In this document: positions 36,101 to 62,083 of the stretch, one piece after another
Layout: each line of letters starts with the position of its first letter
How positions within the stretch are numbered: the first letter of the stretch is position 1
IMG/VR virus record: IMGVR_UViG_3300044911_003339
Coordinates: 1 to 64,000 of that record
Direction: 5' to 3' (one strand)
DNA length: 64,000 nt
Origin: a virus
Made by a program: the position numbers and the translations under genes
Notes under the pieces: generated by a model
What the model was told of the DNA's origin: nothing
Database searches by the model: none
What the model saw: only the letters and a program-made list of their open reading frames with translations

Positions 36101-37255
36101 GTGGCGCTCATCCGCAACGGCGTGTCGCTCAACTCGAATCCGATGCGCGTCGGGGGAGGACCGAACGTCAACTCGATCAACCGACCCATCGGGCCGGGCG
36201 CGCAGCGTGGCTTCTACGCAGGCGAGGGCACGGTCGTCAGCGGAGCATCGATCGCCGACACGGCGGCGTTCCCCAACGGCTACGAGGGCGGGACAGCGTG
36301 GCTTCTCGCGCCCCGAGGCGGCGGTCTCTCCGCCTACACGACGTTCACGCACCCGAACGTCGTCACCGCGGCGCTCGCCTCGGGCATCAACATCGGGGCG
36401 ACGCTCACGTCAGACGGCACGATCACGACCGCTGCGATTCAGGCGCTCGCGAATCTCGTCTCTACGCTCACGGCGAACGGCGCGGTCACGACCGCGGCGA
36501 TCACGACTCTCTCGAATCTCGTCGCGTCGCTGACGGCGACGACCACAGTCACCGCTGCGATTCAGGCGCTCGCGAACCTCGCAGCAACACTCACGGCTGA
36601 CGGCTCGATCTCGAACGCAGAGCTTTCACTCGTCGTCGGGCTCGCGTGCTCGATGGTCTCCGACGGTTCGATCTCGACGGCGAACCTGAAGCTCGTCGTC
36701 GGAATCGTATGCGCCATGCTCTCCGACTGCGGCGTGAGCGGCACCCTCACCGCTCCGGCCAACCTCGCGGCGACGCTGCTCGCATCCAACAACGTGACGG
36801 GTGCGCTCTCTGCTCTGAGTAATCTGATCTGCGAGATGACCGCGAACGGATCGCTCGTCGCGTCGCTGCGAGGCACTCTGAGCATGAGCGCTGTGCTCAC
36901 GACTGCCGGAAGCTCGACGGACGCTCCCACGCCAGCGGAGATTGCTGTTGCCGTCTGGCAGTACGTCCTGAGCGGTGTGACGGCAGGCGACCGCTTGTCG
37001 GAGGTCACCGCGGCCCGGATGTCGCTGCTCTCGACCGAACTCGACCCCTCGCTGTCCGGCAGCACGGCGGCGCAGATGGTGCTCGCGCGGAAGATCCTGC
37101 ACAATCGCCTGGAAGTGGACATCGGCTCGCAACGGCTGGTGCTCTACGACGACGACAACACGACCGTGCTGAAGCGCTGGCCGCTCCAGACCACCGGAGG
37201 CGAGCCGGTCACCACCTCGCCTGGTGTGCAGACGAAGAGAAGGGCTCCGACGTGA
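36101..37255 (+). CDS. putative fibre-like structural protein
   Basis: About 23-aa repeats (TAAIQALANL..TLTA.G); TPAEIAVAVW; LYDDDNTTVL. Confidence 0.6.
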   Translation: MALIRNGVSLNSNPMRVGGGPNVNSINRPIGPGAQRGFYAGEGTVVSGASIADTAAFPNGYEGGTAWLLAPRGGGLSAYTTFTHPNVVTAALASGINIGATLTSDGTITTAAIQALANLVSTLTANGAVTTAAITTLSNLVASLTATTTVTAAIQALANLAATLTADGSISNAELSLVVGLACSMVSDGSISTANLKLVVGIVCAMLSDCGVSGTLTAPANLAATLLASNNVTGALSALSNLICEMTANGSLVASLRGTLSMSAVLTTAGSSTDAPTPAEIAVAVWQYVLSGVTAGDRLSEVTAARMSLLSTELDPSLSGSTAAQMVLARKILHNRLEVDIGSQRLVLYDDDNTTVLKRWPLQTTGGEPVTTSPGVQTKRRAPT

Positions 37256-39552
37256 AGATTCGCAAGTCGATCACACAGGGGCTCAACGAGGTCGGCGGGC
37301 AGGTCTCTCAGGGCCTCAACGTCGGTGGCGCGGTCCCCGCCTCAGAACCGGCAAGCACGGGCTTCGTGCTGATCCAGGAACCGGCGCGGCACCCGAGTCG
37401 CCGGTTCCCGCACATGCAGACCGAGAGGCTTCGTCGCCTCGCGGAAGCAGGACTCGGCGAGACGCAGCGCTTCGTGCGCAGAATCTCGCAGACGGAGGAA
37501 GAGGGCACGCGCCCCGCTCCTCACGTCCTCTCGCCCGAGGACGTGACGCGACAACTGGGAGTGCCGCTCGACCTCGAACAGAAGATTCACGCCATCGTGC
37601 GTGAATCGATTCCTCCGAGCGACGGATCGAAGATCGTGGACGTGAAGCGCTTCGGCAGCGCTCGAACGCGACTCCTCGACTTCATGCGGAGACAGAAGGT
37701 CACCCTCGACTCGGACCTTCGCGCAGAGATCATGCGTCGCGCCCTTCACTACTGGCGAGCAAACTTCCGCGTCGATTACGGACGCACCCCGGAGATGCGC
37801 ATGGGCAAGGCACTGGTGATCCCCAAGCAGCGCTTCGTGCTCATGAAGGGCCCGAAGGTAGAAGCCCCTGGCGCGAGCCCGACGGGTCGAGTCTCGATGC
37901 ACCCGATGCACGTGGACGCGTCGTCGGGGAAGGTCGGCCACAAGTACATCGCGCGCAAGCCCGATGGGCATGGCGGCTGGCTCTACAAGTACCCCGGCGA
38001 CACCGAGTTCCGCCCCGGCGCGGGAATCGAAGAGGGGCACACGCAGGCCCCCGAGGGCGCGCACCTCGGCGTGCACGAGAGCGGATTCCGCCCGACGCAC
38101 GAGCGCCACGCGGACGGTGGGCACACGTTCCACTTCGGAGAGGACGTGTCCGCCCACATCCCGGCCAACGCGGACCGCGAGCACCACCGGAAGGAGCACG
38201 CGAAGCACGGGGCCGCCTACAAGAAGGCGATGGCCGAGGGCAACGAGGAGAAGGCCAAGGGGCACCTGCGCGCCTACCAGATGCACGCCGAGGCCCACAA
38301 CCGCGCCCTCTCGGCCGAGCGCAAGGCCGCGAAGACGGGCATGGCTCCGCCAGGGCACGGGCTGCCTCCTGACGTGGGCAGTCAGGTCGAGGGCAAGCCC
38401 CAGAAGCAGCCCCCCGGAGCAGGCGGTCCTGCTACGATGCCCGGTGCCCCTGGCGGCTCTCCAGGCCAGCGACCTCCTACGCAGGGCGGGATGGCCGCTG
38501 GGGGCGCTCCGATGACTCCTGGGGGCGCAGGGGAGCCCCCGCAGGGCTTCGCAGCCCGCACGCCTCCCGGAGCCGACGTGGGGCAGTACCGCCAGCATCT
38601 CCAGGCCGCGAGCGACGCGATGTCGAACCTCGCGGCGACGCATGCGCACGTCGCGGACCTCGACGCCCGCATCAAGACCGTGAAGGCGGATCGCTCGCTG
38701 CACCCGCGCATGAAGAAGCAACTCGCGGCGCAGCTACAGGCGGAGAAGGCGCAGGCGGAGCTTGACCGATTCCAGCACGAGGACGCGCACGACGCGGCCA
38801 TGGAGCAACTGAAGTCGATTCACTCCGCGCTCCGAAAGGAGAAGCTGAAGCACCACCCGATCGTGAAGATGATCGACGGGCTGCTGAAGCTCATGCAGAG
38901 CTTCGCGTCGAAGATGGGCCACGGGCCGAACCCGAAGGGCGAAGAGGGCGCGAGCCCCAACGAGCGCCAGCGGGTCGTGGACTTCTACAGCGCCCGTTCC
39001 GACGCAGCCGGCGAGGCGAAGGCCGGCGCAGGCGGCGAGGAGTTCAAGCCACGCGAGCGTACGCTCTCGCTGCGCGCTCCCACCGACACGGGCGGAGCCA
39101 AGCCCGTCGGAGAGAATCCCGCTGCGAGCCCCGCGACCCTCGCACAGAAGCGCGAGGCTCCGAAGACGGCGGCGAGCGACAGCACGTGGGACGCGGACCT
39201 CGCGAGCGCGAAGGCGAAGCGTGACGAGACCGAGCGTGCTGCGAGTCAGGCTGGCGACACGTGGCGGAATCGCCAGATCGCGCAGGGCAAGGACACGCAG
39301 GGCATGCTGCGTGAGCAGCTTCGCGCTCCCACGGAGACCTCGGAGGCCAAGACGGCAGCGCCGAAGCGCCCGACTGCGGCGGGCACGGTCGCGCCGCGGA
39401 AGCGGGCCGCGAAGTCGGCGACCGAGGCGGACCTCATCGATCTCCGCAAGGCGCTCGCGCTCGCGCACGAGGGCCTGCGTGAGACCGCGCTGACCGACAA
39501 GCGAATCGTCTTCACGCCCCCGACCGAGCGCCGCGTGCGCCTGGAGTGGTGA
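37252..39552 (+). CDS. large low-complexity putative internal head protein
   Basis: HKYIARKPDGHGGWLYKYP tag; K-[SAG] sites; His-rich and Pro/Gly-rich segments. Confidence 0.6.
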   Translation: MKIRKSITQGLNEVGGQVSQGLNVGGAVPASEPASTGFVLIQEPARHPSRRFPHMQTERLRRLAEAGLGETQRFVRRISQTEEEGTRPAPHVLSPEDVTRQLGVPLDLEQKIHAIVRESIPPSDGSKIVDVKRFGSARTRLLDFMRRQKVTLDSDLRAEIMRRALHYWRANFRVDYGRTPEMRMGKALVIPKQRFVLMKGPKVEAPGASPTGRVSMHPMHVDASSGKVGHKYIARKPDGHGGWLYKYPGDTEFRPGAGIEEGHTQAPEGAHLGVHESGFRPTHERHADGGHTFHFGEDVSAHIPANADREHHRKEHAKHGAAYKKAMAEGNEEKAKGHLRAYQMHAEAHNRALSAERKAAKTGMAPPGHGLPPDVGSQVEGKPQKQPPGAGGPATMPGAPGGSPGQRPPTQGGMAAGGAPMTPGGAGEPPQGFAARTPPGADVGQYRQHLQAASDAMSNLAATHAHVADLDARIKTVKADRSLHPRMKKQLAAQLQAEKAQAELDRFQHEDAHDAAMEQLKSIHSALRKEKLKHHPIVKMIDGLLKLMQSFASKMGHGPNPKGEEGASPNERQRVVDFYSARSDAAGEAKAGAGGEEFKPRERTLSLRAPTDTGGAKPVGENPAASPATLAQKREAPKTAASDSTWDADLASAKAKRDETERAASQAGDTWRNRQIAQGKDTQGMLREQLRAPTETSEAKTAAPKRPTAAGTVAPRKRAAKSATEADLIDLRKALALAHEGLRETALTDKRIVFTPPTERRVRLEW

Positions 39553-40262
39553 TGTCCAGCAAGGCCGAAGCCGTCGTCGTCGCGAAGGCGCTCGCGCTCA
39601 TGGGCAAGCGAGGTCGCCGAGGTCCCGTCGAGGACGAGGTGGCTCCGCGTCGCGCGAGCACGAAGCTCCATCGAGGCCGGAAGATGCCGGCCGAGCCTGC
39701 GTCTCGCTGGCCTCACAGCGCGAAGCGGCCGAAGGCCGTCGTCCAGCCCGACCTCACAGAGCCCGGTGTGCAAGGTCGCCCGCCGAAGTCGAGCGAGACG
39801 CCCGTCTACGGCAAGGGCTCGACCATCGGACCCGGACCAGGCGGCGGAGGGATTCTCGGCAAGCGGAAGGGGAAGCGCCCCTACGCACGCTCGCCGAAGT
39901 ACACGACGCTCGACATGATGGCGGCCGATCTCCACGGCAAGGTCGTCGGCCCGATGGGGTCGAAGGAGAACTCAGGCACCAGCTACGGGCCCGGCCCTGG
40001 ATGGAACTCGAACCCGATGCCGGACTTCGGCGACATGTTCCCCGGCCGAGACCCGAAGGGGTCGGAACGCGAGGAGACGAAGGCGCAAGCGAATCGCATG
40101 GTCTCGAATCGCAAGCGCAACGAGGGTACGATGGGGTTTCACGGAACCCCTCCCAAGCCGACGCTTCGGGCTGAAGCGAAGGAGCAGTTCTTCATCACCG
40201 CGACGCGCGAGAGCGAGAACAAGCCTCGCCTCTACGCGCGCGTCGGCTACAAGAGGTCGTGA
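39552..40262 (+). CDS. basic Pro/Gly-rich putative internal head protein
   Basis: Very K/R-rich, disordered; VVAKA site near N-terminus. Confidence 0.55.
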   Translation: MSSKAEAVVVAKALALMGKRGRRGPVEDEVAPRRASTKLHRGRKMPAEPASRWPHSAKRPKAVVQPDLTEPGVQGRPPKSSETPVYGKGSTIGPGPGGGGILGKRKGKRPYARSPKYTTLDMMAADLHGKVVGPMGSKENSGTSYGPGPGWNSNPMPDFGDMFPGRDPKGSEREETKAQANRMVSNRKRNEGTMGFHGTPPKPTLRAEAKEQFFITATRESENKPRLYARVGYKRS

Positions 40263-43200
40263 TGCCGCTCGGTCACAAGTACATCTCGCGCAAGCGCAAC
40301 GCTTCTGGCGGTTACGATTACGTCTACCCGCATCCCACGACGGGTGAACGCGTTCGCATCCGCACTTCCCTGCGTCTCGACGGCGAGCATCGCTCGGTCA
40401 CGGCCGAGAATCCCGAAGACCGCACGATGTCGGCGACAGCCTGGTCGCGTCGCGGGGCAGACGGCAAGACGCTGACCGAGGCTCACTCTGCGCTCGACGA
40501 GGCCGAAGCTCCGATTCATCGCGCCGCGGTCGCTGACACGATGAACCGGAAGAAGACGATCACGCGCCTCTCGCACAAGACCTCCAGCTACGGCGAGAAG
40601 CACGGCATCGGCCCTGACGACAAGGGAGGCTCTGCGGTTCGTGACGCCGCACGCAAGGCGGCGTGGGCTGCTTCCGAGCCGCCCACTGGAGGCCACACCC
40701 GCGAGACGCACGAGAAGGCCGCGAAGGCGCACGAACACGCCGCGAAGCTCGAACGCGAGGCCGGGCGACGTGATGGCTACGTGAGGCACGCTTCGATGGC
40801 CGAGCAGCATCGCAACGCGATGGAGCGGCTGGGCTCCTCAGAATCCGATTCACCAGTCTATCCGTTCTGGGTCCGCAACCAGAGGACCGGGGTCTCCGAG
40901 GGATTCAAGACGCGTGAGCAGGCCGACACGCACCTGCGGCACTACGTGAAGAATCCCGAGGACCACATCATCGAGCAGGTCGGCGCGAAGGGTCCGAAGG
41001 TCAACGTGGACCACCTGCTCTCCGGCAACATGGGAATCCCGCGCATCGAGATGCCGCAGATCCGTTCCTTCAAGCTGCCCGAGTTCCTCTCCAAGCTGGA
41101 GAAGAAGGGCATCAAGGCGACGAAGGGTGAGCGCGCAGTCGGCTCGCTGAAGCCGACGCAGAACGAGATCCACGGCGAGCGCGTCCAGGAGATCATCGAA
41201 GACCCGAAGGAGCGAGAGAATCTCGCGAAGCAGATCATCATCTCGAACGACGGCTTCATCCTCGATGGGCACCATCGCTGGGCAGCGCTCACGACGATCG
41301 ACCCGAAGGCGAAGATCAAGACGCTCCATGTGGACATGCCGATGCGCTCTCTGCTGAAGGAGGCGCACGCGTTCGAGGGTGTGGAGTACCAGAAGAGCGA
41401 ACAGGAGACGGACATGGGCGGCGACCTCATCGACAACCTCGAACTGCTCGCGAAGGGCGACACGCTCGTCGGCTTCTACTCGCCCGGTGTCGCTCGCGGC
41501 GGCAAGTACTACCGCCGAGTCCCGACCGGGAATCCGAAGCACCCGTGGAGGTACTTCTACACGGAGGCGGAGTACAAGGACGCGATGAAGGACGCTTCGC
41601 ACGTCGGCGGGACCGAGGCGAAGCGGGCGCGCGTGAAGAAGCGCGTCTTCGTGAGCGAGAAGGAGGCGCGCGAGAAGTACGGCCTTCCTGGTACGACGAA
41701 GGAGCTTCACGCGCCGGACGGGAACTACCCGCCCGAGCGGAAGAAGCTCCACGAGGAGATCATCTCGCACTTCCTCGACGGCAAGGGGAAGCCCCCCGCA
41801 GGCAAGAAGCCCGTCGCGCTGCTCACCGTCGGAGGTCCGGCCGCGGGCAAGTCCACGCTGCTGAAGCACCTCGGCGAGAACCTCGACGATTACGTGATGA
41901 TCGCCGCCGACGACGTGAAGGAGAAGCTCCCCGAGTTCCAGCGCGCGCTCAACCTCGGGAATCGCAAGGTGACGCAGCCCGACGGCTCGGTCACGAGCGT
42001 GCCAGTCACGGCGAGCCACTCGGGCTGGATGGCGCACGACGAGAGCACGGACATCTCCGACGAACTGGAGAAGCGCGTCATCGCCTCGGGCAAGTCGGCC
42101 ATCTTCGACGGCACGGGCAAGAACGTCCCGAAGATGCTCGCGAAGATCGCCGCGCTGAAGAAGGCCGGCTACCACGTGCGCGTGGTGATGCCGCACGTGC
42201 CGATGGGCGAAGCGATCAAGCGGCTGCACTCGCGCTCGGAGGACACGGGCCGCACGCTGCCCGTCGATGCGGCGATCGACATGCACCGGAAGATTCCGGG
42301 CAACTTCGAAGCCATCGCTCGCGCTGCCGACGACTTCTCGCTCTTCAAGTCGGGCAACCCGCCGAAGCCGATCTGGACGGGCGGCGCGGGTCAGGAGGAC
42401 AAGATCCACGACCACGAGGAGATGTCGAAGTTCAACCTCGCGCGAGGACTGCACCAGGACATCGGCGCAGAGGAGAAGGCGGGCGGAATCTACAAGAAGA
42501 GCGAGGACCCCGAAGCGCTCGACGCGACCGGCCCGAAGCAGCCGCACCACACCATGAACGAGTTCATGGAGATCCTCTCGCGCTGGAACGGCTCCATCGA
42601 CAACCACGAGGACGGCCGGAGCAAGGTGCCGCACGACGGCGACATCGAGGACGGCCTCGCGGACGTGATTCCCGACGCGGAGGACGAGACCGTCAAGCAC
42701 CTGAAGCGTCGTGCTCCGAAGGCCAAGAAGGCGAAGGGCGCTCGCTTCATGGAGCGAGGCGAGGTCGAGAAGAGCGGCGACCTCATCGACTCGCTGGAAG
42801 CTCTCGTGAAGGGCGGCGAGGCTGCGGGGCACAAGCTGGTGCACTCGGAGAATCCGCGTGCGCACGGAGGAGACGTGACGAAGAGCGACCGCTCGCGTCG
42901 CCTGGAGGAGAAGATCATGAGCGACGAGATGCAGAAGGGCCTCTACCAGTTCCAAGGTCTCGGCTCGGGCGAGGTCCCGGACCAGTACCTCTACGATTAC
43001 CTCTGCGCGTTCGTCGAAGAGGCGTACGAGCACGAGCGGCAGGAGAAGGTGCACCAGAACACGCTCGTGCCGCCGTCGAGCACGGGGGCGAGCATCGAGG
43101 ACGTGTGGGCGACCGCCGTCTTCAACGAACTCGTCAGCATGATGGGCTCGAACGCGAACCTGAAGCGCGCGGCGGTGAAGTACAACGTCACGAAGGACGT

Positions 43201-43624
43201 GATCGCGCACATCCTCCGCAGCAAGGGCCTCGTGCGCCCCTTCTCCGACGCCGGCACGTGGACGAGCGACTACGACTCGATGCGCGCGATGGACGGCGAG
43301 GGCGTCACGCGCCCGCTCGTGCTCTCCGAGTCGGCCCGCGCGCAGTACCGCGACATCGTGCCGGATCCGTTCGGGCACAACGTCGGAGTCGCGCTCGCGA
43401 AGGCCGAGCCCGCGCCGACCGCGCCGCTCTTCATCGACGATTCCCACGACCCGCACGGGAATCTCGCGAAGGCCGAGCGTGCTCGCCTCGCACTCGTGGA
43501 CTACCGGCAGAACGCCGAGTGGCGGCCGAACGTCTCGCCGACGTGTATGATCCACGGCAGCGCGGATCTCACGAAGTCGATGAATCTCTCGAACCCGCAC
43601 GCTCGCTGCACCTGCCCGCGCTGA
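40262..43624 (+). CDS. polyvalent protein: ParB-like domain plus zeta-toxin-like P-loop kinase plus unknown C-terminal domain
   Basis: LKPTQ...IIISNDGFILDGHHRWAA; GGPAAGKST, IAADDVKEKLP, IFDGTG. Confidence 0.85.
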   Translation: MPLGHKYISRKRNASGGYDYVYPHPTTGERVRIRTSLRLDGEHRSVTAENPEDRTMSATAWSRRGADGKTLTEAHSALDEAEAPIHRAAVADTMNRKKTITRLSHKTSSYGEKHGIGPDDKGGSAVRDAARKAAWAASEPPTGGHTRETHEKAAKAHEHAAKLEREAGRRDGYVRHASMAEQHRNAMERLGSSESDSPVYPFWVRNQRTGVSEGFKTREQADTHLRHYVKNPEDHIIEQVGAKGPKVNVDHLLSGNMGIPRIEMPQIRSFKLPEFLSKLEKKGIKATKGERAVGSLKPTQNEIHGERVQEIIEDPKERENLAKQIIISNDGFILDGHHRWAALTTIDPKAKIKTLHVDMPMRSLLKEAHAFEGVEYQKSEQETDMGGDLIDNLELLAKGDTLVGFYSPGVARGGKYYRRVPTGNPKHPWRYFYTEAEYKDAMKDASHVGGTEAKRARVKKRVFVSEKEAREKYGLPGTTKELHAPDGNYPPERKKLHEEIISHFLDGKGKPPAGKKPVALLTVGGPAAGKSTLLKHLGENLDDYVMIAADDVKEKLPEFQRALNLGNRKVTQPDGSVTSVPVTASHSGWMAHDESTDISDELEKRVIASGKSAIFDGTGKNVPKMLAKIAALKKAGYHVRVVMPHVPMGEAIKRLHSRSEDTGRTLPVDAAIDMHRKIPGNFEAIARAADDFSLFKSGNPPKPIWTGGAGQEDKIHDHEEMSKFNLARGLHQDIGAEEKAGGIYKKSEDPEALDATGPKQPHHTMNEFMEILSRWNGSIDNHEDGRSKVPHDGDIEDGLADVIPDAEDETVKHLKRRAPKAKKAKGARFMERGEVEKSGDLIDSLEALVKGGEAAGHKLVHSENPRAHGGDVTKSDRSRRLEEKIMSDEMQKGLYQFQGLGSGEVPDQYLYDYLCAFVEEAYEHERQEKVHQNTLVPPSSTGASIEDVWATAVFNELVSMMGSNANLKRAAVKYNVTKDVIAHILRSKGLVRPFSDAGTWTSDYDSMRAMDGEGVTRPLVLSESARAQYRDIVPDPFGHNVGVALAKAEPAPTAPLFIDDSHDPHGNLAKAERARLALVDYRQNAEWRPNVSPTCMIHGSADLTKSMNLSNPHARCTCPR

Positions 43625-43660: not shown

Positions 43661-45460
43661 ATGGGCCTGTTCGACAAGTTCAAGGATGGATTCGAAGCGC
43701 TCGCGAAGGCGCTCGGCGAATCCGAGGAAGACGGCGAGGACATCCCCTTCGACAAGATGCGGGATGCCCTCGTGCGTTCAGGTCTCGCGGAACCGACGGA
43801 GGAGAAGCCGCGCGCGCTCTTCCACGATCCCTACGCGGTCACGGACTGGGGAGGCTGGCGAGAGCGACCGTCGTCGATGACGTACGAGACGCTTCGCATG
43901 ATGAGCGTGAAGAACACGGTCATCGCCTCCATCATCCAGATCCGGTGTAATCAGGTCGCGCAGTTCGGTCGGCCTCAGCAGGGCCCGTACGACAAGGGCT
44001 ACCGGATCATCCCGCGCGACAGGCGGGACAAGAAGAAGGTGCTCACGCCCGCGGAGAAGAAGCAGGCCGCGGAGATCGAGCGGATGCTGGAGACGACGGG
44101 CTTCCTCCTGCCCGGCGAGAAGCCCGCGGATCGCGACAGCTTCCGCACCTTCTTGCGGAAGGCCACGCGCGACATCCTCACCTACGACCAGTGGGCGTTC
44201 GAGAAGATTCGCGACCGCAAGGGTCGCGTCTCGCGCTTCATCGCGCTCCCCTCAGAGAGCATCCGGCCGGCGAGCGCGGACATCGAGCACATGGACGTGA
44301 AGTCCCTGCGCGAGCGCGTCTCGCACGTCCAGGTCTACGAGGACACGCCGATCGCCGAGTTCAGCCCCGAGGACATCGCGTGGTGCGTGATGAATCCTCG
44401 CTCCGACCTGCGCGCGAACGGCTTCGGCTTCTCGTACATCGAGATGCTCGTCTCGCTCGTGACCGCGTGGCTCTACGGGTTCGAGTACAACCAGCGATTC
44501 TTCATGCAGGGCAGCGCCATCAAGGGCATCCTGAACGTGAAGGGCGCGATTCCCGATCGTCAGCTTCGTGCGTTCCGACGCATGTGGTATTCGATGGTCT
44601 CGGGCGTGAGCAACGCGTGGAAGACGCCGATCCTCAACAGCGAGGATCTCCAGTGGGTCCCGCTCCACGTGAACAACCGCGAGATGGAGTACGGGCAGTG
44701 GATGGACTGGCTCACGAAGCTCACGTGCGCCGTGTTCGGAATCGATCCCGTCGAGATCAACTTCATCTTCGGCAACAGCGGGCAGTCGTCGTCGCTGAAC
44801 CAGTCGCGCCCGAACGCGGCGGAGGTCCAGGAGTCGAAGGACAAGGGCCTCGTGCCTCTCATGGACCACATCGCCGACAACCTGAACATGCACATCATCT
44901 GGGAACTCGCACCAGATTTCGAGTTCGCCTTCACGGGCTTCGACGCGCAGGCCGAGGAGAAGGAGCAGGAGGGTCGCATCAAGGCGGTCACGAACTACAA
45001 GATGATCGACGAGGTGCGCGCGCTCTACGAAGACGATCCGCTGCCGAACGGCATGGGCCAACTGATTCTGAATCCGACCTACATGCAGTGGGCGATGCAG
45101 AAGGAGCAGGCCGCGATGGGCGGACCTCCCGGTGGAGGTGAGGGCGACATGGGCATGGGCGATCCCGACGCGCTGCCCTCCACAGCACCGGGCAACGACG
45201 AGGAAGACCTCGCAGGGCCTCCCCAGAAGGGCCCGCCCAAGCCCGGCCAGCCCCCGAAGGGTCCGCAGGGCCCGCAACCCCCGAAGGGCGCGCAGAAGCC
45301 CCCAGGGAAGCCCTTCGGCTCCCCCGGTGAGGAAGCGCTCCAGGCGTCAGCCTTCGTCGAGCGCACGGCGCGTGGCATCCTCCGCAAGTCCCGCGTACAC
45401 ACGCGCACCGAAGGCGGGCGGGAAATCATCGACATCGAACTGCCGGAGGATCCGACATGA
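43661..45460 (+). CDS. portal protein
   Basis: NPRSD...GFSYIE...YNQRFFMQG...KGILN...EMEYGQW...FGIDPVEINF...SKDKGLVPL; SPO1/Twort-like. Confidence 0.92.
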   Translation: MGLFDKFKDGFEALAKALGESEEDGEDIPFDKMRDALVRSGLAEPTEEKPRALFHDPYAVTDWGGWRERPSSMTYETLRMMSVKNTVIASIIQIRCNQVAQFGRPQQGPYDKGYRIIPRDRRDKKKVLTPAEKKQAAEIERMLETTGFLLPGEKPADRDSFRTFLRKATRDILTYDQWAFEKIRDRKGRVSRFIALPSESIRPASADIEHMDVKSLRERVSHVQVYEDTPIAEFSPEDIAWCVMNPRSDLRANGFGFSYIEMLVSLVTAWLYGFEYNQRFFMQGSAIKGILNVKGAIPDRQLRAFRRMWYSMVSGVSNAWKTPILNSEDLQWVPLHVNNREMEYGQWMDWLTKLTCAVFGIDPVEINFIFGNSGQSSSLNQSRPNAAEVQESKDKGLVPLMDHIADNLNMHIIWELAPDFEFAFTGFDAQAEEKEQEGRIKAVTNYKMIDEVRALYEDDPLPNGMGQLILNPTYMQWAMQKEQAAMGGPPGGGEGDMGMGDPDALPSTAPGNDEEDLAGPPQKGPPKPGQPPKGPQGPQPPKGAQKPPGKPFGSPGEEALQASAFVERTARGILRKSRVHTRTEGGREIIDIELPEDPT

Positions 45461-54400: not shown

Positions 54401-57400
54401 CCGAGGGCGTCGAGCTTGCCATCTCGCCCCGTGACCTCCCGGCCTTCCGGGAGTACCTCGGCGGCTTCGTGATGGACGAGCGCGTCTCGTCCATGATGGA
54501 CGAGCAGGCTGCCATCATCCGAGAGCGCGCGCTCCAGGTGACCGGAGAGGACTGGCCTCCCGCAGACCAGATCGTCGATGCGGACGGCAACGTGAATCCC
54601 AACGGAGTGCTGCGCGGCATGGTGACGGGCGCGATGGGCATGCAGCCCGGCGCGCATCGCATCGAGGCGCTTCAGCGCGTCGCGATGAACAACGGTCGCC
54701 TCATCGCTGCGCACTTCATGGGCACGGGCAAGACCGCGTTCTCGATCGCAGCCGCGCAGATGATGCGGAACCTCGAATCCCGCGAGCAGCCCGGCAAGCC
54801 GCACCCGAATCAGGTGAAGAAGAAGGTGCTCGCGCTCGTGCCGCTCAACACCGCGAACAACTACGCCGACGAGGTGGAGGTGTTCACCGGAAGGCCCGCA
54901 ACGATCATCGGCTCGGGCTCGCTCGCGGGCAGCGTGCGGATGTTCCGCATGCCGAAGGACCAGGGCCAGAAGAAGAACGAGACGCGCGAGGCGTTCATCG
55001 CGCGCTCGCTCGCCGCATGGAAGGCGGCGGTCAAGACCGACCCGACGCTGTGGAACCCGTGGGCAGACGATTCCCAGATGTGCGTCTGCCCCTACGAGTA
55101 CTTCCGCGACAACGAGGAGTTGATGCGGGCCACGGAGATGTTCGACGGGCTCGTCGTGGACGAGGCGCACAACATCGCACGTGAGAACGAACTCTCACGT
55201 GCGGTCGAGCGCTGGAATCCGAACATGAACATGTTCCTCATGCTCACCGGCACGCCCGTGACGAACACGCTCGACGTGCTCCCGCGTATGGCGAGCCTCG
55301 TGAGCGCGGGCAAGGTGAACCTCGGCACGAAGCAGGAGTTCACGGAGCGCTACCTCGTCGGCTCGGCTGTCGCGAAGGGCGAGGGCGCGAAGAATCCTCC
55401 GAAGACGGACCTCAACCCGCAGCGTGCCGGCGAACTGGCGGCGATCATGCGTCCGCTCATGCACATCGCGACGACGCAGGACGTGAAGGGCAAGACGATG
55501 CCCGCGGTGCTGCTCGACGAGAACAAGCCCGCGCACATGATCGGTCAGCAGGCGCGCATGTACCGACTCTCGATGGCGAAGTTCACGCCCGAGGAGAAGG
55601 CGGCGATCATCGAGAGCGGTGCGGTCGGCACCGACGAGTCGTACGCGCTCGATGACGAGGGTCGCCGCAAGATCGGTGTCGCTCGCTCGATCGCGAACTG
55701 CCTCGCCTACAAGGCACCCGACCAGCGTGAGAATCTCACGTACGAGTCGAAGAGCACCGAGGAGAAGAAGGGCAAGGTCATCGAGAAGACCGTCACCCGC
55801 GTCTTCTCGCTGCCCACGCACGCGATGATGACGACGAAGCGCCCCGAGGGCTGGGGCGGGAAGTGGCCGACGTTCTCGGAGGTCGAGAAGGGAATCGTCG
55901 AGCCGGGCTACTACAACGTGCTCTCGGAGTACTACGAGCGCCTCTTCGGCGTGACGTACGACTCCGTGGAGGGCAAGCCCATCGCGAAGGAGATCCTGGA
56001 CGGCGTGAAGCGCGGCGACTACGTGACGCCGAGCGGCGCGCCGTGGGGTACGGTCGTGAATCCCGATTACGGCCCAGAGGGCATGATCTGTCGCGGCACG
56101 CTCGACCCGGTGACGGGCAAGATCGAGCCGCTGCGGAAGGAGATCGTCGAGAACGGGCAGAAGCGCGTCGTCGAGGTCAAGCCGGGCACGCGCTTCATCC
56201 GCGATCCGAACTCCAAGGCGGCGGGCCTCTTCTACCACGAGGATGACTGGAACTTCACCGGCCGCTTCATCGACTCGGGCGAGGGAGGCGGCGGCGAGGG
56301 TGGAGGCGAGGACGATCCGTCCGACCCGAAGCCCGCGTCTGCCGGCAAGCAGGCCCCGAAGGACCCCTCGCTCTCCATCCAGCGTTCGACGAAGCGCCGG
56401 AAGGAGCGAGAGATGTTCGACCTCGCGGTCACGGCGGGCAACGCGAAGAGCGACGAACTGGAGCAGTACATCCACAACGCGCTTCGCGACGACAACCTCG
56501 GGCCCGATCAGCAGTTCATCCTCTTCGGGAATCGCATCGGCTCTTCCTTCCGCACGATGGAGAGCAAGCTCCGCACGATGGGATTCCAGGACGTGAACGA
56601 AGCGCTCGGGCACCCCGAGTGGAGCACGGCCGAGGACAAGGCGATGATGCCTCGGAAGTTCTTCGTGACGTACGCGGGCAAGGGAGCAACGCTCGGCGAC
56701 CGCGACATCAACTCGGAAATCTTCCGACAGAAGCTCGACCAGTTCGGCCACAAGACCGGGCAGTCGATGTTCGTCTTCCGCACGCTCAACGGCGGCACGA
56801 AGAAGCCACCCAAGGTCGGCGAGATGCGCGAGGGCTGGAGCCGTGGCCAGCGGAAGCGCATCGCCGACGCTCTCGCGGAGCCCACGCGCAAGACGGCCGA
56901 GGGCAAGCCTGCGGGCCTGGAGGTGCCGATGCGCGTGACGAGCGTCGAGGTCGATGGTCGCATCGAGCAGCGGTACCTCTACGAGTCGGACATGAAGCCG
57001 AAGGATCGCGCAGAGTTCCTCCGGCTGGAGAAGGAGCGCCGCGGCGCGGACAAGGCGCGCAAGCAGGCGATCGACGGCGAGATGCGCGCGCTCGCCGACC
57101 GCTACTGGAGCGACCGGATTCCTCTGTCCGATCACTACCAGTACGTGCTGAACAACACGCAGATCATGGTGGCGACCGACGCCGCGAACGTCGGCCTCAA
57201 CTGGCCTGCTCCCAAGCTCGTCATGTACGACTCGCTCTTCTCGCCGATGGACGAGTGGCAGCGCATGACGCGTGCGGCCCGCATGCTCGACGCAGCGGTC
57301 ACCGGACCCGCGAAGAAGTACGTCGAGAAGATCGACGCGAAGCTCTCCGAGATGGAGAAGCAGACCGGGCTGAAGGAGTACGGACCAGAATCTTCCCTTC

Positions 57401-58122
57401 AGGCGGTGCAGGACGCGATCGAGTCGCTCCCCGAGGACGAGCGCGCCGAGCTTCTGAACCTGGAGGGAGGAGGCCCCGATCAGATCGTCGAGGCCATCTT
57501 CAGCCGTCGCGCCATGGACAAGATCGCGAAGCTCCGCCCCGAGGTCGGCGCGCATCTCCGGCAGGCCGGCGCTGCGCCTGATCCCGATCGCCCCGAGATC
57601 CGCATCCGTCCATCGGCCATCCAGGAATCCGACGTGACGAACGAGATCATCCGCAAGCACCTCACGCCCTTCGAGCAGCGCGTGCTCCGAGGACGCATGT
57701 ACCTCGTGGACGTGAAGCGGCTCACGACCTCGTGCGACGTGCCCGAGATGAAGTCGATTCGCATCGAAGACCCGATGACGGGCAAGAAGACCACGGTTCA
57801 GGTCCCGACCGGCAAGTGGTCGGTCGAGGCTCCGACGCAGGCCGAGCGAAGCCAACTCACGCAGGGCCGCATGAAGATGGTGCCCTACGAGAAGGCGATG
57901 AAGGCGTTCCAGAACGCGCAGCCGGTGAAGACCGACTACGACTTCCTCGTGACGCCTCGCGGGAGCGTGCGTAGCTTCTCGATCATGCCTGAGGAGATCG
58001 AGCGCGAGAAGGCGAGTCGCGCGAAGCGCGAGGTCGCGAAGCCGAAGCCCACGAAGACGAAGAAGTCGGAGAGCTACAGCCGATTCTTCATTCCAGCGCG
58101 AACCGCGCGCGGGGAGGCGTGA
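51487..58122 (+). CDS. 2211-aa polyvalent protein: HEXXH metallopeptidase plus SNF2/DarB-like helicase
   Basis: WHELGH...TAYA...EDFAESF; AHFMGTGKT, LVVDEAH, LTGTP, ATDAANVGLN, QRMTRAAR. Confidence 0.88.
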   Translation: MSRFVIPALRAALPDALAKSFQRGPLAQHKYLKREPYFVGGKLRWRYWYASDELRKQGMVEHDPAGEHEHHLLANIADIYEHFKSVIRSTAATPTTAIEGIFQAAVDDPKAQRVPQVAMSPAFQAQHVQPFIDAEAKGAPPEASPIVRVHDALEMVPDYLLKLVMGGTKNTKHPGYKGLGPYPGLSALVMNRQEDEGADYANTAGWAHPKTGELHLLGGGSGKHGSDSSYSFLDGGDPATAPTPTDFNDAKVHLEKVVWHELGHHVHFTLETEQPDVMDSWRDLSTGPGPKPTAYAHTAWWEDFAESFSGCFALPKVMAMRCPERYDWMRQHVLKSLPERSALLKMSDEELAWWNKKKTTPPGKLLMHLKSNAPARRFGAYYSDKDQFFTVGKGGRTVYLRFGPSEPDQEDGWTQVPSTIDPETGLPVYDAAYGPRFKVQGNLKEMYDERGNPLDDFQAFLYLGQDDPEVQKFVADTMEKYVATLPPNSPQPTEYDAVQWLAAKGGDEAKALETRLLSYKMYTSLGYKRESEKISAKEAHTTEKERKRVEKERAKGGTGYLDRHDWVPVEIPRSEFVQKSGTFKFDNVRPAEYQPWQAREWDPVTKTSRVKTVYDPAAGKVVPVRTATVYEQENPDGTTFRVTVAEGEPFSIGQTILAPVSVKLPDGRISQDWQPYKLSVEDGEMTVTNLAKKFRVDPEALLRQNHRYMRGQITDPMLAALLNPSGEVIRDQFDLMRLMKLAAEQPTPPTAWVSVRGKTGSIAHFKVSFDGSGPPRVEGRQWAAKLGKDPTEPIRLDQILGKDDELIGVETVRERKAKEVKIKPGGLVWVTVKNHLGDAKRVMARYIEKKSFEEKGKKKNAHVVQVLPGQGTGLPKDRVIVTRVNKSDESQIPGKPEIRRRFVEPMQKDVLLYADEVRVGSGDRDTSGVIKILPPKNGSVTKAQLAAIPGVRIIGLEKARNKKGGAVTEELPEGVELAISPRDLPAFREYLGGFVMDERVSSMMDEQAAIIRERALQVTGEDWPPADQIVDADGNVNPNGVLRGMVTGAMGMQPGAHRIEALQRVAMNNGRLIAAHFMGTGKTAFSIAAAQMMRNLESREQPGKPHPNQVKKKVLALVPLNTANNYADEVEVFTGRPATIIGSGSLAGSVRMFRMPKDQGQKKNETREAFIARSLAAWKAAVKTDPTLWNPWADDSQMCVCPYEYFRDNEELMRATEMFDGLVVDEAHNIARENELSRAVERWNPNMNMFLMLTGTPVTNTLDVLPRMASLVSAGKVNLGTKQEFTERYLVGSAVAKGEGAKNPPKTDLNPQRAGELAAIMRPLMHIATTQDVKGKTMPAVLLDENKPAHMIGQQARMYRLSMAKFTPEEKAAIIESGAVGTDESYALDDEGRRKIGVARSIANCLAYKAPDQRENLTYESKSTEEKKGKVIEKTVTRVFSLPTHAMMTTKRPEGWGGKWPTFSEVEKGIVEPGYYNVLSEYYERLFGVTYDSVEGKPIAKEILDGVKRGDYVTPSGAPWGTVVNPDYGPEGMICRGTLDPVTGKIEPLRKEIVENGQKRVVEVKPGTRFIRDPNSKAAGLFYHEDDWNFTGRFIDSGEGGGGEGGGEDDPSDPKPASAGKQAPKDPSLSIQRSTKRRKEREMFDLAVTAGNAKSDELEQYIHNALRDDNLGPDQQFILFGNRIGSSFRTMESKLRTMGFQDVNEALGHPEWSTAEDKAMMPRKFFVTYAGKGATLGDRDINSEIFRQKLDQFGHKTGQSMFVFRTLNGGTKKPPKVGEMREGWSRGQRKRIADALAEPTRKTAEGKPAGLEVPMRVTSVEVDGRIEQRYLYESDMKPKDRAEFLRLEKERRGADKARKQAIDGEMRALADRYWSDRIPLSDHYQYVLNNTQIMVATDAANVGLNWPAPKLVMYDSLFSPMDEWQRMTRAARMLDAAVTGPAKKYVEKIDAKLSEMEKQTGLKEYGPESSLQAVQDAIESLPEDERAELLNLEGGGPDQIVEAIFSRRAMDKIAKLRPEVGAHLRQAGAAPDPDRPEIRIRPSAIQESDVTNEIIRKHLTPFEQRVLRGRMYLVDVKRLTTSCDVPEMKSIRIEDPMTGKKTTVQVPTGKWSVEAPTQAERSQLTQGRMKMVPYEKAMKAFQNAQPVKTDYDFLVTPRGSVRSFSIMPEEIEREKASRAKREVAKPKPTKTKKSESYSRFFIPARTARGEA

Positions 58123-58656: not shown

Positions 58657-58716
58657 CGCTGCTGCCGGATTCGTGACACACCATGGACCGTGGCCTGCTC
58701 CCGTGTGGAGCACGAG

Positions 58717-58752
58717 AGGCGACCGAAGGAGAAATCCATCGGTCGCCTTTTT
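58717..58752 (+). terminator. terminator-like hairpin upstream of protease gene
   Basis: AGGCGACCGA-A-GGA-GAAA-TCC-A-TCGGTCGCCT followed by TTTT. Confidence 0.7.
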
Positions 58753-58782
58753 CGTTCTCGGGTCGCAGATCGCGCGGACGCG

Positions 58783-59553: not shown

Positions 59554-60588
59554 ATGAGCGGAAGCAACGTCGAAGTGGACGTGAGCGGTCTGGAGGCCAG
59601 CCTGAACGATCTCGTGAAGGCAGCCGACGCGACCGATCTCGTCAAGGGCAAGGGCGCAGGCGGTTCGGTGAACCGGGACTACTCGGGTCACATGGACGAG
59701 CGCGGCAAGGTCGGCGGAGGTGCCGCGGGCAGCGGCGACATCGGCGGCATCGACGACATGATGATCGGCAAGATGGGCGAGACCGCGATGTCGGCCCTCG
59801 CGTCGGCGGGCTTCAGCGCGCCGCAGATCGCCGCCTTCATGTCGGGCAAGGCCGCGGACGAGGACGAGGACGAGAGCGACGACGAGGACGAGAGCGACGA
59901 CGAGGACATGAGCGGTCAGGCCGACGGCTCGTTCGTCTCGCACAACCGCCCCGAGCCGACCGGCAAGATGGCTCCTCCGATGCCGCCCTTCCGCGGCAAG
60001 GCGAAGAAGAGCGGCGCGGGCGAGGGCGAGCCCCTCAACAAGTCGCTCGACATGCTCCGGCAGGACCCGGACATCGGCGACGCGATCGACGTGTCGGCGT
60101 ACCTGGAGGCCATGACCGCGCGTGTCGCCGAGCAGATCGACGGGCTCGCGAAGGGCGTCCACGGCGCGCGCACGGAGCAGGCGCAGGTCAACCGCGCGAT
60201 GGCCGCGGCACTCTGGCAGACCGGCAAGCTGGTGAAGAGCCAGCAGGCGATCATCCAGGCGCTCGGCGAGCGTCTCGGAATCGTCGAGGCGACGCCGGTC
60301 CCGCCGAAGGGCGTCCAGGACCCGCGTCGGGCTGCCGCGCTCGCGAAGGGATTCGCGGGCGAGGCGGGCGGGCCGGGCTCGCGTCAGATGAAGAAGAGCG
60401 AGATCCTCGGAGCGCTCTCCTACATGACGCTGGAGAAGGGCATCCGCGAGATCAACGGCCAGAAGACCTCCGAGGTCATCTCGCTGTTCGAGGGCGGCAA
60501 CGTGATCGCCCCCGAGACCATCCAGGCGGTCGAGAGCTTCCTCCGCCAGAACCCGAGCGACGCCGCGAAGGCGCTCTCGTACCGCTGA
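59554..60588 (+). CDS. capsid scaffold-like protein
   Basis: Between protease and capsid; acidic DE tract; multiple LVKA/LVKG/LNKS/LAKG/LVKS sites. Confidence 0.7.
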   Translation: MSGSNVEVDVSGLEASLNDLVKAADATDLVKGKGAGGSVNRDYSGHMDERGKVGGGAAGSGDIGGIDDMMIGKMGETAMSALASAGFSAPQIAAFMSGKAADEDEDESDDEDESDDEDMSGQADGSFVSHNRPEPTGKMAPPMPPFRGKAKKSGAGEGEPLNKSLDMLRQDPDIGDAIDVSAYLEAMTARVAEQIDGLAKGVHGARTEQAQVNRAMAAALWQTGKLVKSQQAIIQALGERLGIVEATPVPPKGVQDPRRAAALAKGFAGEAGGPGSRQMKKSEILGALSYMTLEKGIREINGQKTSEVISLFEGGNVIAPETIQAVESFLRQNPSDAAKALSYR

Positions 60589-60658: not shown

Positions 60659-62083
60659 ATGAACACCACCCCGTTCGTCAGCGCACGCGACTACGGCGGC
60701 TTCGGGTCGAGCAGCCCCGACGAGATCGCCGCACTCAGGAAGGCCCTCTACGCGGGCCAGGACGTGAACGCCCCCGCGGTCGTTCCCGGCGAGGGCTTCC
60801 CGCTCCGCACCGAATCTCTGGAGGCGAGCTTGAAGGTGCTCACCTACGAGATGGACGAGATCAAGCTGTTCAAGACGATCAGCAAGATTCCCGCGACGAA
60901 CACCGTCGAGGAGTTCAACCGTCTCCTGAGCTACGGCCGCGGCGGCAGCCGACGCTTCAACCTCGGCTGGATGACCGAGGGCGATCTTCCCGAGGAGGAG
61001 GACTCGACCTACGAGCGCATCACGATGCAGATCAAGTTCCTCGGCGTGGTCGGCCGCGTGACCCACGTCGCGAACACGATCCGCGCCGCGCACGGCAACG
61101 TGATCGCGATGGAGACGCAGAACAAGACGATGGAACTGCTGAAGCAGTTGGAGAACGCGCTGTTCTTCGGCGATTCCTCGCTCATCCCCGAGCAGATCGA
61201 CGGCCTCGAACGCCTCATCACCGCGGGTGCTCCGAACAACGTCATCGACCTCCGCGGTGGACCGATCACCGAGGAGATCATGAACGACTCGCTGCTCCAG
61301 ATCCGCGACAACTTCGGCATGGCGACCGACTGCTACCTCGGCACGGGCCCGTTCGCGGACCTCGCGAAGCAGGTCTACGACCGTCAGCGCTTCGGCGTCG
61401 CTCCGGCTCCGGGCGTGCTCGGCGCGCAGGTGACGGCGTTCCAGGGCCAGCACGGCAAGGTGTCGATGCACGACCACGTGTTCATCACGGAGGGTCAGAC
61501 GGCGCTCGCTGCGGGCCTCGGCTCGACCACGAAGCGCGCGGCGGCTCCGACCATCACCGTCGCTCCCGCGGCCGGTGCGGCGGCGGGCTCGCTCTTCACC
61601 GCGGCCGACGCGGGCACCTACATCTACCGCGTGGTGGCGGGCAATCGCTTCGGCCTCAGCGTCCCCGTGAACTCGGCGGGCGTGGCGGTCGTCGCGGGCG
61701 ACGGCGTGACCTTCACGGTCGCGGACGGCGGCCCCCCGAGCGCGACCTTCTACGAAATCTACCGCACGACCCCCGGAGGCTCGGCGGCAGATGCTCGTCT
61801 CATGACGCGCGTCGCGCGCACGGGTGCCACGCAGGTCATCACCGACCTCAACGCGGACATCCCCGGCACGTCGAAGGGCTTCATGCTCATGCAGAACGCG
61901 CGCTCGTTCTCGTGGGCGCAGCTTCTCCCGATGACGCGCATCCCGCTCGCCGCGATCGACACGTCGATCCGCTGGGCGCAGGTGCTCTACGGCGGCGTGA
62001 AGATGTACACGCCCGCGAAGAACATCGTGTTCAAGAACATCGGTCGCCTGCCCGGCTCGCTCCCGTCGTCGGTCGTCCCCTGA
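60659..62083 (+). CDS. major capsid protein (SPO1/Twort-like) with FN3-like insertion
   Basis: LRKALYAG, LRTESLE..LK, IPATNTVEEF, EGDLP...STYER...KFLG, LENALFFGDS, NVIDLRG, QLLPMTRIPLA. Confidence 0.93.
   Translation: MNTTPFVSARDYGGFGSSSPDEIAALRKALYAGQDVNAPAVVPGEGFPLRTESLEASLKVLTYEMDEIKLFKTISKIPATNTVEEFNRLLSYGRGGSRRFNLGWMTEGDLPEEEDSTYERITMQIKFLGVVGRVTHVANTIRAAHGNVIAMETQNKTMELLKQLENALFFGDSSLIPEQIDGLERLITAGAPNNVIDLRGGPITEEIMNDSLLQIRDNFGMATDCYLGTGPFADLAKQVYDRQRFGVAPAPGVLGAQVTAFQGQHGKVSMHDHVFITEGQTALAAGLGSTTKRAAAPTITVAPAAGAAAGSLFTAADAGTYIYRVVAGNRFGLSVPVNSAGVAVVAGDGVTFTVADGGPPSATFYEIYRTTPGGSAADARLMTRVARTGATQVITDLNADIPGTSKGFMLMQNARSFSWAQLLPMTRIPLAAIDTSIRWAQVLYGGVKMYTPAKNIVFKNIGRLPGSLPSSVVP

Follow-up and report, generated by a model that had tools for sequence, protein, structure and literature searches.

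Why should a phage interleave about 19 kb of cargo genes, coding for giant proteins, with the genes for its own head? The question is raised by an IMG/VR virus record of 105,161 bp (IMGVR_UViG_3300044911_003339, rated as complete), which comes from an uncultured phage; its first 64,000 nucleotides are here called the window. By similarity, the stretch is the head operon of a 105-kb phage of high guanine-cytosine (GC) content, whose portal, prohead protease, scaffold and major capsid protein (MCP) are distantly related to those of SPO1-like Herelleviridae; head-morphogenesis genes run from 31 kb onward, and the giants are found among them on both sides of the portal, in the interval bounded by TerL (31139) and the MCP (60659). 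Our answer, to which we give a probability of roughly 60%, is that the giants are polyproteins that would be co-assembled into the prohead and diced at their linkers by a lysine-specific HK97/S78-like protease, and that about a dozen modules would travel with the DNA. It starts from a lysine motif that is enriched and conserved, lies at module borders, is coupled to short tags and is identical with the sites at which capsid protein and protease mature in this family. The genes concerned are:

37252..39552, plus strand: g766 (766 amino acids)
39546..40262, plus strand: g238
40259..43624, plus strand: g1121, putative polyprotein
43661..45460, plus strand: portal (Pfam Phage_portal, phrog_12)
46232..48046, plus strand: g604, MuF-like domain plus zincin
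48024..51137, plus strand: g1037
51487..58122, plus strand: g2211
58690/58783-59538, plus strand: prohead protease (phrog_1028, 'head maturation protease', 4e-50)
59554..60588, plus strand: scaffold
60659..62083, plus strand: MCP of the SPO1/Twort type (phrog_752, 4e-87)

An earlier note on this stretch had proposed hydrophobic-x-K↓[SAG] as the site of the prohead protease (the arrow marks the predicted cut, with P3, P2 and P1 before it and P1' after it). Every instance quoted there was found where it had been placed: LRK↓A in the MCP (K28; 60734-60745, P3 to P1'); LVKA, LVKG, LNKS, LAKG, LVKS and MKKS in the scaffold, where LAKG occurs twice and LEKG is also present; FEKA, LAKS and MNKS in the protease; LAKA (K16) and LRKS (K576) in the portal; YQKS/LAKG (K379/K399), YKKS (K747) and VEKS/LVKG (K838/K851) in g1121; LRKS (K413; 47462-47473) in g604; LVKS (K11) and LVKS/IIKA (K299/K305) in g1037; and LAKS (K19) in g2211.

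We compared observed and expected counts over the whole 105-kb genome with composition-preserving residue shuffles (400-500 per protein). LxK[SAG] occurred 9 times in protease, scaffold and MCP together, with 1.1 expected (z 7.3), and 17 times in the giants, with 6.7 expected (z 4.1); early proteins had 4 (6.4 expected) and the late, tail-side proteins of 62-105 kb had 7 (7.2 expected). The looser [LIVMFY]xK[SAG] gave 14 against 4.3 in protease, scaffold and MCP (z 5.1), 38 against 24.8 in the giants (z 2.7), 17 against 20.1 in early and 21 against 23.9 in late proteins. After correction for composition there is thus an excess in head proteins and giants and none in the early proteins, as the earlier note would have it, and per lysine LxK[SAG] is more frequent in the giants than in the rest (odds ratio 2.7, p 0.016). 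Control motifs (R at P1, an acidic or polar P1', A or G at P3) were flat in the giants and most groups; only [LM]xK[DEQNT] was mildly raised (late proteins z 2.1, core head proteins z 2.3). The motif is short and was picked post hoc, being defined after the earlier reader had seen these proteins, and about 25 copies are expected anyway in the 6,332 residues of the giants; conservation, the divergent lineages, 148 distant proteins and SPO1/A511 therefore weigh more. With shuffles, control motifs, control proteins, conservation and replication in distant proteins all pointing the other way, the idea that the excess in the giants reflects chance or composition is not supported and seems to us scarcely credible. 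A 12-position position weight matrix (PWM) built from the core sites was set aside, as its P' side was over-fitted and it separated giants from controls only modestly; the site calls rest on the simple motif plus conservation.

What the motif looks like in classical substrates was read from relatives: a scan of viral contigs with the protease gave 33 related loci (38-99% identity), and the head modules of ten related genomes were also compared. The MCP has a predicted propeptide of 28 residues ending in ..EIAALRK↓A, its K28 is invariant in all relatives, and SPO1 gp6.1 (PDB 9vel; 2e-55, 35% identity) has ALNK↓AL at the aligned place. Eight [LM]-x-K↓[SAG] sites are conserved in the scaffold (K22, K31, K163, K200, K228, K265, K281 and K295); they keep K[SAG] in 0.90-1.00 of 20 relatives, compared with 0.36 for other lysines, and P3 remains L, M, I, V or F with P2 free, even within the hypervariable acidic linker. 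The protease is encoded in the frame of the 58690 open reading frame (ORF), not in that of the 58683-59333 ORF, and the start used in the earlier note, 58783 (M32 of the 58690 ORF), fits the place where relatives begin. Its catalytic core (residues 52-199, 148 residues) is bracketed by K51 and K199, with a further site, K249, in the C-terminal tail; H97, S157 (in GFSVEG), K51 and K199 are invariant in 29 protease sequences including SPO1 gp3.2 and A511, and H97 and S157 are probably the catalytic residues. Pfam Peptidase_S78 matched the protease below its cut-off (E 0.011; 16.3 bits, cut-off 21), and a search of PDB sequences with it gave no match. The portal is predicted to be trimmed after K16 (FEALAK↓A) and K576 (ILRK↓S), sites that recur, at a tolerance of 10 columns, in 7/13 relatives (K16) and 10/11 (K576), where the background is 11%. 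Column-exact scoring, by which the portal sites appeared unconserved, was rejected as an artefact of misaligned termini; the tolerant test and inspection both show recurrence.

Cultured members of the family were informative as well. The SPO1 scaffold gp3.3 carries 11 [LIVMF]xK↓S motifs against 1.4 expected (z 8.9) and the SPO1 protease 8 (z 5.2), and the GenBank mat_peptide of A511 lets the mature capsid protein Cps start at residue 24, after ..EDALK↓S, which agrees with the Lys↓Ser cleavage of the A511 capsid cited in the earlier note. Capsid chains of the staphylococcal phage phi812 in the PDB have 463 (5lii) or 439 amino acids (9row). Our literature search found no open paper stating the cleavage site of A511 or SPO1. 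From these alignments we predict that the phage of the window cuts its capsid protein after lysine.

Two further observations concern these proteins. Relatives have a second N-terminal portal site, ..DALMK↓GG, where the window (43760-43790, residues ~34-40) reads ..DALVRS, with Arg replacing Lys at P1. The tail of the protease after the conserved ..VLAK↓S (residues 200-249, window 59290-59440) reproduces the N-terminal ~25 residues that the capsid protein has after maturation. This segment has diverged in the window's own protease, and the likeness is clearer in L015:1566-2363, the L070 protease ORF 4038-4988, L031:10076-10876, SPO1 (L125:5158-5928) and A511 (L127:7443-8237). The tail of relatives reads SAG-x-x-V-x-DPG-x-APGEGFPLRTESLE next to ALxAGxDVNDPGVAPGVGFPLRTESLE in the MCP, that of SPO1 K↓SLEAGYEVDP next to K↓ALEAGHTVNP, and that of A511 FMK↓SWTTGHGTTPDT next to ALK↓SFTTGYGITPDT. 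It looks like a mimic of the capsid N-arm, which could dock the protease into the prohead.

Do the giants share these sites? Support for a site was taken as recurrence in relatives within a positional tolerance, against a background of ~10%, and the claim that the motif stands at the giants' module borders held in part: every large giant has a supported subset, but only ~16-20 of the 38 hits are supported. These include K29 (9/11 relatives), K86 (10/12) and K413 (14/14) in g604, K19 (5/6) and K579 (4/7) in g2211, K893 (10/13) and K1071 (9/13) in g1121, and K299/K305 in g1037 (3/3), while g1121 K379/K399 and K838/K851 recur at matching junctions in the mosaic homologs P0003-P0005. K635, K697 and K747 (YKKS) of g1121 and most internal hits of g2211 are not conserved among relatives. 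Internal BLAST breakpoints against mosaic relatives fall at residues 381, 411 and 818-871 (818-824, 867-871) of g1121, 195 of g766 and 396-430 of g604. The leaders ending at g1037 K11, g2211 K19, g604 K29/K86 and g238 K14 have (D/A)-L-x-K↓(S/A/G) in common with MCP K28 and the scaffold.

Short basic/aromatic tags stand 1-18 residues downstream of the supported junctions, at the heads of modules, and in this genome only the giants have them. They are HKY-x-x-R...GG-x-x-Y-x-Y (at 230 in g766, 6 in g1121 and 29 in g2211), GGKYYRR (at 414 in g1121), T1, which reads YIGPKGG-x-WAD..H (at 16 in g1037), and GGW-x-x-IP-x-G...RRR (at 311 in g1037). Among 86 unique tags from the window and relatives, 81 have [LIVMF]xK[SAG] within 30 residues upstream (random positions, 13%), with Leu at P3 in 62 of the 81 and G, A or S at P1'. 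Two classes of linker precede the lysine, a helix (S-x-D-x-I-D/E-x-L-E-x-L-x-K) and a strand (S-x-R-F-V/I-I-P..K). A second K[SAG] stands 13-14 residues upstream in 22/81 junctions, so that the linker could be excised whole as a small peptide; in each of the pairs YQKS/LAKG and VEKS/LVKG, listed by the earlier reader, one motif borders either side of such a linker. Examples in the window are:

41396..41455, plus strand: first helix linker of g1121, predicted to be excisable (residues 380-399, S-EQETDMGGDLIDNLELLAK, flanked by YQK↓S and LAK↓G)
42773..42811, plus strand: second helix linker of g1121, predicted to be excisable (residues 839-851, SGDLIDSLEALVK, flanked by VEK↓S and LVK↓G)
48069..48125, plus strand: module-head tag of type T1 (YIGPKGGVWADPQHTVPW), three residues past the K11 site of g1037

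Linkers also occur at the extreme N-termini of g2211 and g1037 and at the C-termini of g2211 and g766 (in the latter ..ADLIDLRK↓A plus 33 residues), which suggests a role beyond that of spacing modules; with the T4 targeting sequence as a model, one might speculate that they are capsid-targeting signals, and the tags, no less speculatively, signals for retention or ejection. Full-text literature searches for the tag strings found no paper, and tblastn of the T1 junction against cultured phages gave no match.

Linker and tag might, on the other hand, form one repeated structural unit, for example one that binds the capsid interior or DNA, in giants that are never cut and act intact, the resemblance to protease sites arising from a shared amphipathic-helix composition. 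We consider this unlikely. It would accommodate the lysine at a fixed 2-4 residues before the tag core in T1 junctions, and the giant virion proteins of the N4 type are packaged whole according to Iyer et al. 2017 (PMC5512222). However, K-[SAG] with a hydrophobic P3 precedes four types of tag and follows two unrelated types of linker, it stands tagless at g604 K413, at g1121 K893/K1071 and at the portal ends, P1, P3 and P1' are fixed while P2 is free, and K[SAG] flanks linkers on both sides.

If the giants are cut at these junctions, as we propose, g1121 shows best how the sites lie with respect to folded modules. It consists of an HKY tag at 6, an alpha/beta domain (266-377), a linker (380-399), a GGKYYRR tag with a Zeta-type kinase (476-734), a second linker (839-851) and a conserved C-terminal helical/Cys-His module (894-1121). 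An AlphaFold2 (AF2) model, with a mean predicted local distance difference test (pLDDT) of 54, has confident domains at ~266-377, 460-733 and 900-993, and K379, K399, K838, K851, K875 and K893 all lie in stretches of pLDDT <50 that flank the kinase domain. The first linker has pLDDT <50 and a short helix at 391-399; the second, the giants' top PWM score (13.3), lies within the low-pLDDT stretch 778-897. The kinase named in the earlier note is borne out by Pfam (Zeta_toxin, 5e-20), Foldseek (2e-9) and VIA (Z 18.6/17.4 to AvrRxo1/zeta); the kinase spans 476-734. The wide VIA search was dominated by this domain and gave no assignment for 266-377. The ParB label given to this protein was not confirmed by a Pfam search of the window's own protein. 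The predicted pieces of g1121 are, in residues and with small peptides in brackets, 379 / [20] / 439 / [13] / [24] / [18] / 178 / 50. Its last ~230 residues (42938-43624) are conserved in all relatives and end in a Cys/His motif, C-x-IHG..DLTK↓S......C-x-CPR; instead of an enzyme, they may form a structural module close to the portal.

In g766 the predicted pieces are 1-186, a strand linker at 187-199 (..ALVIPKQRFVLMK↓G), an HKY-tagged module (200-733) and, after the helix linker ending at K733, the C-terminal 33 residues; its homologs are few and conservation is weak, with a cluster of breakpoints at residue 195. The adjoining g238 (238 amino acids) is very basic (19% K+R), rich in Gly and Pro and of low complexity. 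It has a single site near its N-terminus (VVAK↓ALAL, K14) and no homologs in the related loci compared, and is a candidate DNA-condensing internal head protein. In g1037 a leader of 11 residues (..ADLVK↓S) is followed by a T1-tagged module (12-299), a strand linker (300-305, SRFIIK↓A) and a GGW-tagged module (306-1037), with predicted pieces of [11] / 288 / [6] / 732. K299/K305 lie in a low-confidence AF2 stretch (260-311) ahead of a folded part (~360-940), and the model of the N-terminal module (pLDDT 22-30, from an alignment without homologs) is uninformative. The sigma label given to the second module stands on structure in part: nearly all of the top 50 Foldseek matches are chains of the sigma70 family (sigma A/S/B), but at E 5e-3 to 9e-2 and template modelling scores of 0.2-0.3. 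The ADP-ribosyltransferase (ART) label of the first module found no confirmation in Pfam or PDB sequence searches and is a weak lead only; these searches confirmed none of ART, ParB, LysM and sigma in the proteins of the window. In g2211 a leader of 19 residues (MSRFVIPA..ALAK↓S) precedes an HKY-tagged zincin module reaching to ~K579 and an SNF2 ATPase body, a label upheld by Pfam (SNF2-rel_dom, ResIII, Helicase_C), and a strand linker stands at its C-terminus (..KTKK↓SESYSRFFIPA..); the predicted pieces are [19] / 560 / 1,614 / [18], so that g2211 would remain largely whole (~1,614 residues).

The giant g604 has leader sites at K29 and K86, a MuF-like domain (~97-400), DLRK↓S (K413) and a zincin domain with HEFGH at 507, and would give pieces of [29] / 57 / 327 / 191. 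The MuF-like minor capsid assignment of ~97-400 is a tentative one from tblastn, in which the match to 'minor capsid protein' of Bacillus phages covered residues 97-417 only and so ended at K413. Several relatives insert a tagged module exactly between ..DLRK↓ (K413) and the zincin, and a domain swap was also found there. For instance, the ORF at 17031-19307 of L037 (reverse strand) encodes a g604 homolog of 759 amino acids with an extra YIGPRGGKW-tagged module placed between the MuF-like ..DLRK↓A and the zincin's ..LKK↓G, a cassette insertion with two flanking lysine sites; the same is seen in L019, L025 and L026.

Which protease would do the cutting? The two peptidases listed in the earlier note are real in that HExxH zincin motifs occur in the C-terminal part of g604 (507) and in g2211 (260, HELGH), with weak Pfam zincin matches. 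These metallopeptidase (MPTase)-like domains might themselves cut the junctions, before packaging, inside the head or after injection, and the prohead protease would then handle only capsid, scaffold, portal and itself. Iyer et al. 2017 do propose autoproteolysis by MPTase domains, for example in P1 DdrB, and also report that N4 vRNAP, ArdC and TraC1 have such domains yet are transferred uncut (PMC5512222). We regard cutting by the zincins as distinctly unlikely: the junction motif is the same as that at the MCP, in the scaffold and at the protease termini, SPO1 included, so that two unrelated proteases would have to share their P3, P1 and P1' preferences. It is because of this identity with the motif at classical substrates that the prohead protease is favoured as the cutter. 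A complex prediction of the protease core with the first g1121 linker (368-412) scored 0.02, which is evidence neither way.

The same grammar extends well beyond the window. Among 1.84 billion representatives, a profile of the YIGPRGGKW junction matched 789 protein clusters with E <= 1e-3 (472 with E <= 1e-10), mostly proteins of 600-3,100 amino acids with 2-5 tag copies each. In 148 distant proteins, 302/329 unique tag cores have [LIVMF]xK[SAG] within 12 residues upstream, with P2 free (controls, 7%). Some tag-bearing homologs carry InPase and ddrB-ParB domains, and homologs are also fused to portal and MuF families. Of 133 IMG/VR loci with the tag, 77 were compared; in nearly all of these it lies no more than 10 kb from a portal that shares 32-67% identity with that of the window, at a GC content of 0.32 to 0.71. 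Thirteen divergent lineages (MCP 31-74% identical) keep (L/V)(R/N)K↓A in the MCP and have 6-14 motifs, with 1-2 expected (z 7-11), in the ORF upstream of it. A 41%-GC relative (G007) shows the matching pattern with a variant tag. An ORF of 1,923 amino acids in L042 (reverse strand, 12746-18514) has ..KFTI-x-K↓ followed by (S/A)-x-Y-x-RVRNGK-x-E-x-VH, four times; as this variant shares the Y..R.GK....H spacing of YIGPRGGKWAD..H, the tag types may be homologous.

This distribution bears on another possibility, namely that the giants are late cytoplasmic proteins which lie in the head operon by chance, are neither packaged nor delivered, and are processed, if at all, in a way unrelated to the capsid. 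Kinase, SNF2 and sigma-like functions could act late in the infected cell, and packaging of the giants is a prediction. Yet tagged proteins lie near the portal in nearly all of the 77 loci, one giant holds a MuF-like minor capsid domain, and the fusions of homologs to portal and MuF families point to the head as well, all of which makes purely cytoplasmic giants very improbable. Since such proteases work within the prohead, the conserved sites would also imply that giants and protease are located together.

We infer, then, that the giants are present in the prohead and are cut, that the prohead protease cuts them and that the pieces are injected. In this mechanism the giants would be made late, together with the head proteins, and built into the prohead. 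The serine protease (His97, Ser157) would be activated there and cut after Lys in (D/A/G)-L-x-K↓(S/A/G): it would break the scaffold at eight sites, take 28 residues off the capsid protein, trim both ends of the portal and trim itself at K51 and K199. The same cuts would excise the short helix or strand linkers between cargo modules and release about a dozen proteins, among them a Zeta-type kinase, a MuF-like domain, two zincins, a sigma-like module and a large SNF2 ATPase, most of them tag-headed; these would be kept inside the head and pass into the host together with the DNA.

Several points weigh against this reading. We infer cleavage, packaging and ejection for an uncultured phage known only as a sequence, and the giants carry zincin domains of their own, the processing enzymes proposed by Iyer et al. 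2017 (PMC5512222). The excess in the giants amounts to ~10 sites, so that roughly half of the 38 loose-motif hits are due to chance and the earlier reader's list must contain chance hits; with the PWM trained on core sites, lysines scoring >=6 number 13/427 in the giants and ~8/678 in controls. K635 and K697 of g1121 fall within the fold of the Zeta kinase. Sites buried inside folded domains had been named in the earlier note as evidence against its proposal; those found are these two unconserved ones, while the supported sites lie in low-pLDDT linkers. The AF2 models are of low confidence overall (mean pLDDT 54-56), so 'linker' partly mirrors shallow alignments. K-[SAG] before the T1 tag could merely belong to one conserved structural unit. 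Finally, the A511 site has Leu at P2 and not at P3, and the candidate A511 scaffold is not enriched, so specificity is not uniform within the family.

If the reading is correct, this phage and hundreds of relatives deliver a separate kinase, a sigma-like factor, an SNF2 ATPase and peptidases alongside their DNA, all of them released from a small number of polyproteins by the protease that also matures the capsid. It would extend the idea of processed internal proteins, as in T4 and phiKZ, to polyproteins, a different protease family and Lys specificity, and would provide a mechanism for the loading and release of polyvalent proteins, a question that stood open in 2017. Site, linkers and tags would be portable parts for packaging foreign proteins into SPO1-type capsids. 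We would go further only tentatively: it is possible, though we do not hold it probable, that the clade as a whole (GC 32-71%, ~800 tag-bearing clusters) uses a modular cargo grammar in which spacers target the capsid, tags retain the enzymes and guide their ejection, and the Lys maturation protease does the dicing. With such a grammar, nature would have a plug-and-play way of packing capsids with arbitrary proteins at fixed ratios. Tryptic proteomics of virions would hide a Lys-specific maturation.

The surroundings of these genes can be described briefly. The GC content is 65-71% across the window, nearly all genes are on the plus strand, and genes of the operon abut or overlap. The remaining members are:

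31139-32872, plus strand: TerL
32.9-37.2 kb: five small unknown genes
45457..46221, plus strand: g254, a lysine-poor member of the head module, conserved beside the portal
58124-58429: g101

The motif does not occur in g254, which is not a predicted substrate. Two gaps of ~350 nt (51138-51486 and 58430-58782) in the otherwise tightly packed operon hold no convincing ORF, and neither shows a sigma-70-like promoter or a plus-strand terminator-like site; a scan of 43-62.5 kb found none of either. The window has no tRNA genes. In the clade two layouts occur (window 48024-58429 compared with L014, L016 and L018-L026): in the subgroup of the window, g1037, g2211 and g101 stand between g604 and the protease, and in the other subgroup g604 directly abuts the protease, so that this ~10 kb of cargo represents an insertion or deletion within the head operon.

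How does the system compare with known ones? Cleavage after lysine has a precedent in HK97, whose gp5 is cleaved at K103↓S104. With the Herelleviridae (SPO1, A511, K/phi812) the phage shares a homologous portal (37% identity), protease (phrog_1028) and MCP (35% identity), and the last residue of the MCP propeptide is a Lys at the aligned place. In the cultured-phage collection nothing nearer than SPO1-like Herelleviridae (35-37% identity) was found, and megablast of 43-62 kb against it gave no match. In SPO1 and A511 no giant ORFs interrupt the contiguous run of portal, protease, scaffold and MCP genes, whereas here the ~19 kb of cargo is interleaved, and GC is ~35-40% in Herelleviridae compared with 67% here.

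We know of no polyprotein grammar in the Dar/Ddr proteins of P1. Iyer et al. 2017 (PMC5512222) describe these as anti-restriction proteins built into the head during morphogenesis, with DdrB processed before packaging, and in this they resemble the giants; they differ in belonging to an unrelated head-gene family and in that the processing enzyme proposed there is the protein's own MPTase domain. The same paper describes polyvalent proteins, encoded beside portal/MuF genes and predicted to be packaged and injected (PMC5512222). The giants are like them in gene setting and in combining Zeta toxin, SNF2 and zincin MPTase, with InPase and ddrB-ParB in homologs. Unrelated domains share a polypeptide in g1121 (alpha/beta, Zeta and C-terminal modules), g2211 (zincin and SNF2) and g604 (MuF-like and zincin), the giants lie between TerL and MCP with the same setting in 77 IMG/VR loci, and the hallmark domains Zeta toxin and SNF2 score above Pfam cut-offs in window proteins. 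The differences are that autoproteolysis by embedded MPTase domains is proposed in that paper, and that a shared Lys junction motif, the two linker classes and module-head tags are not described in the parts consulted (PMC5512222). In the literature searched we found no polyprotein grammar that is Lys-specific, extends across a clade and uses excisable spacers and module-head tags. Prohead-protease processing of packaged proteins and polyvalent proteins were known already; the Lys-cut polyprotein grammar with spacers and tags, not found in the searched literature, would be new.

In T4, gp21 removes the propeptides of packaged proteins at the same consensus as in capsid and scaffold, and Alt and the internal proteins IPI-III are further precedents for packaged proteins processed by a prohead protease. 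The T4 and phiKZ/SPN3US proteases are of another family and cut after Glu (L/I-x-E; A-x-E), whereas here cuts are predicted after Lys. In SPN3US the prohead protease processes proteins that are packaged and ejected (PMC10052503). As predicted for the window, the propeptides of ejection proteins in phiKZ/SPN3US (gp175/gp245) end at the consensus of capsid and scaffold, and portal and protease are also trimmed (PMC10052503). Outside the protease itself, cuts in SPN3US only remove N-terminal propeptides from single proteins (PMC10052503); here, unlike in SPN3US, they are predicted also between the enzyme modules of polyproteins, with excisable spacers and a tag for each module.

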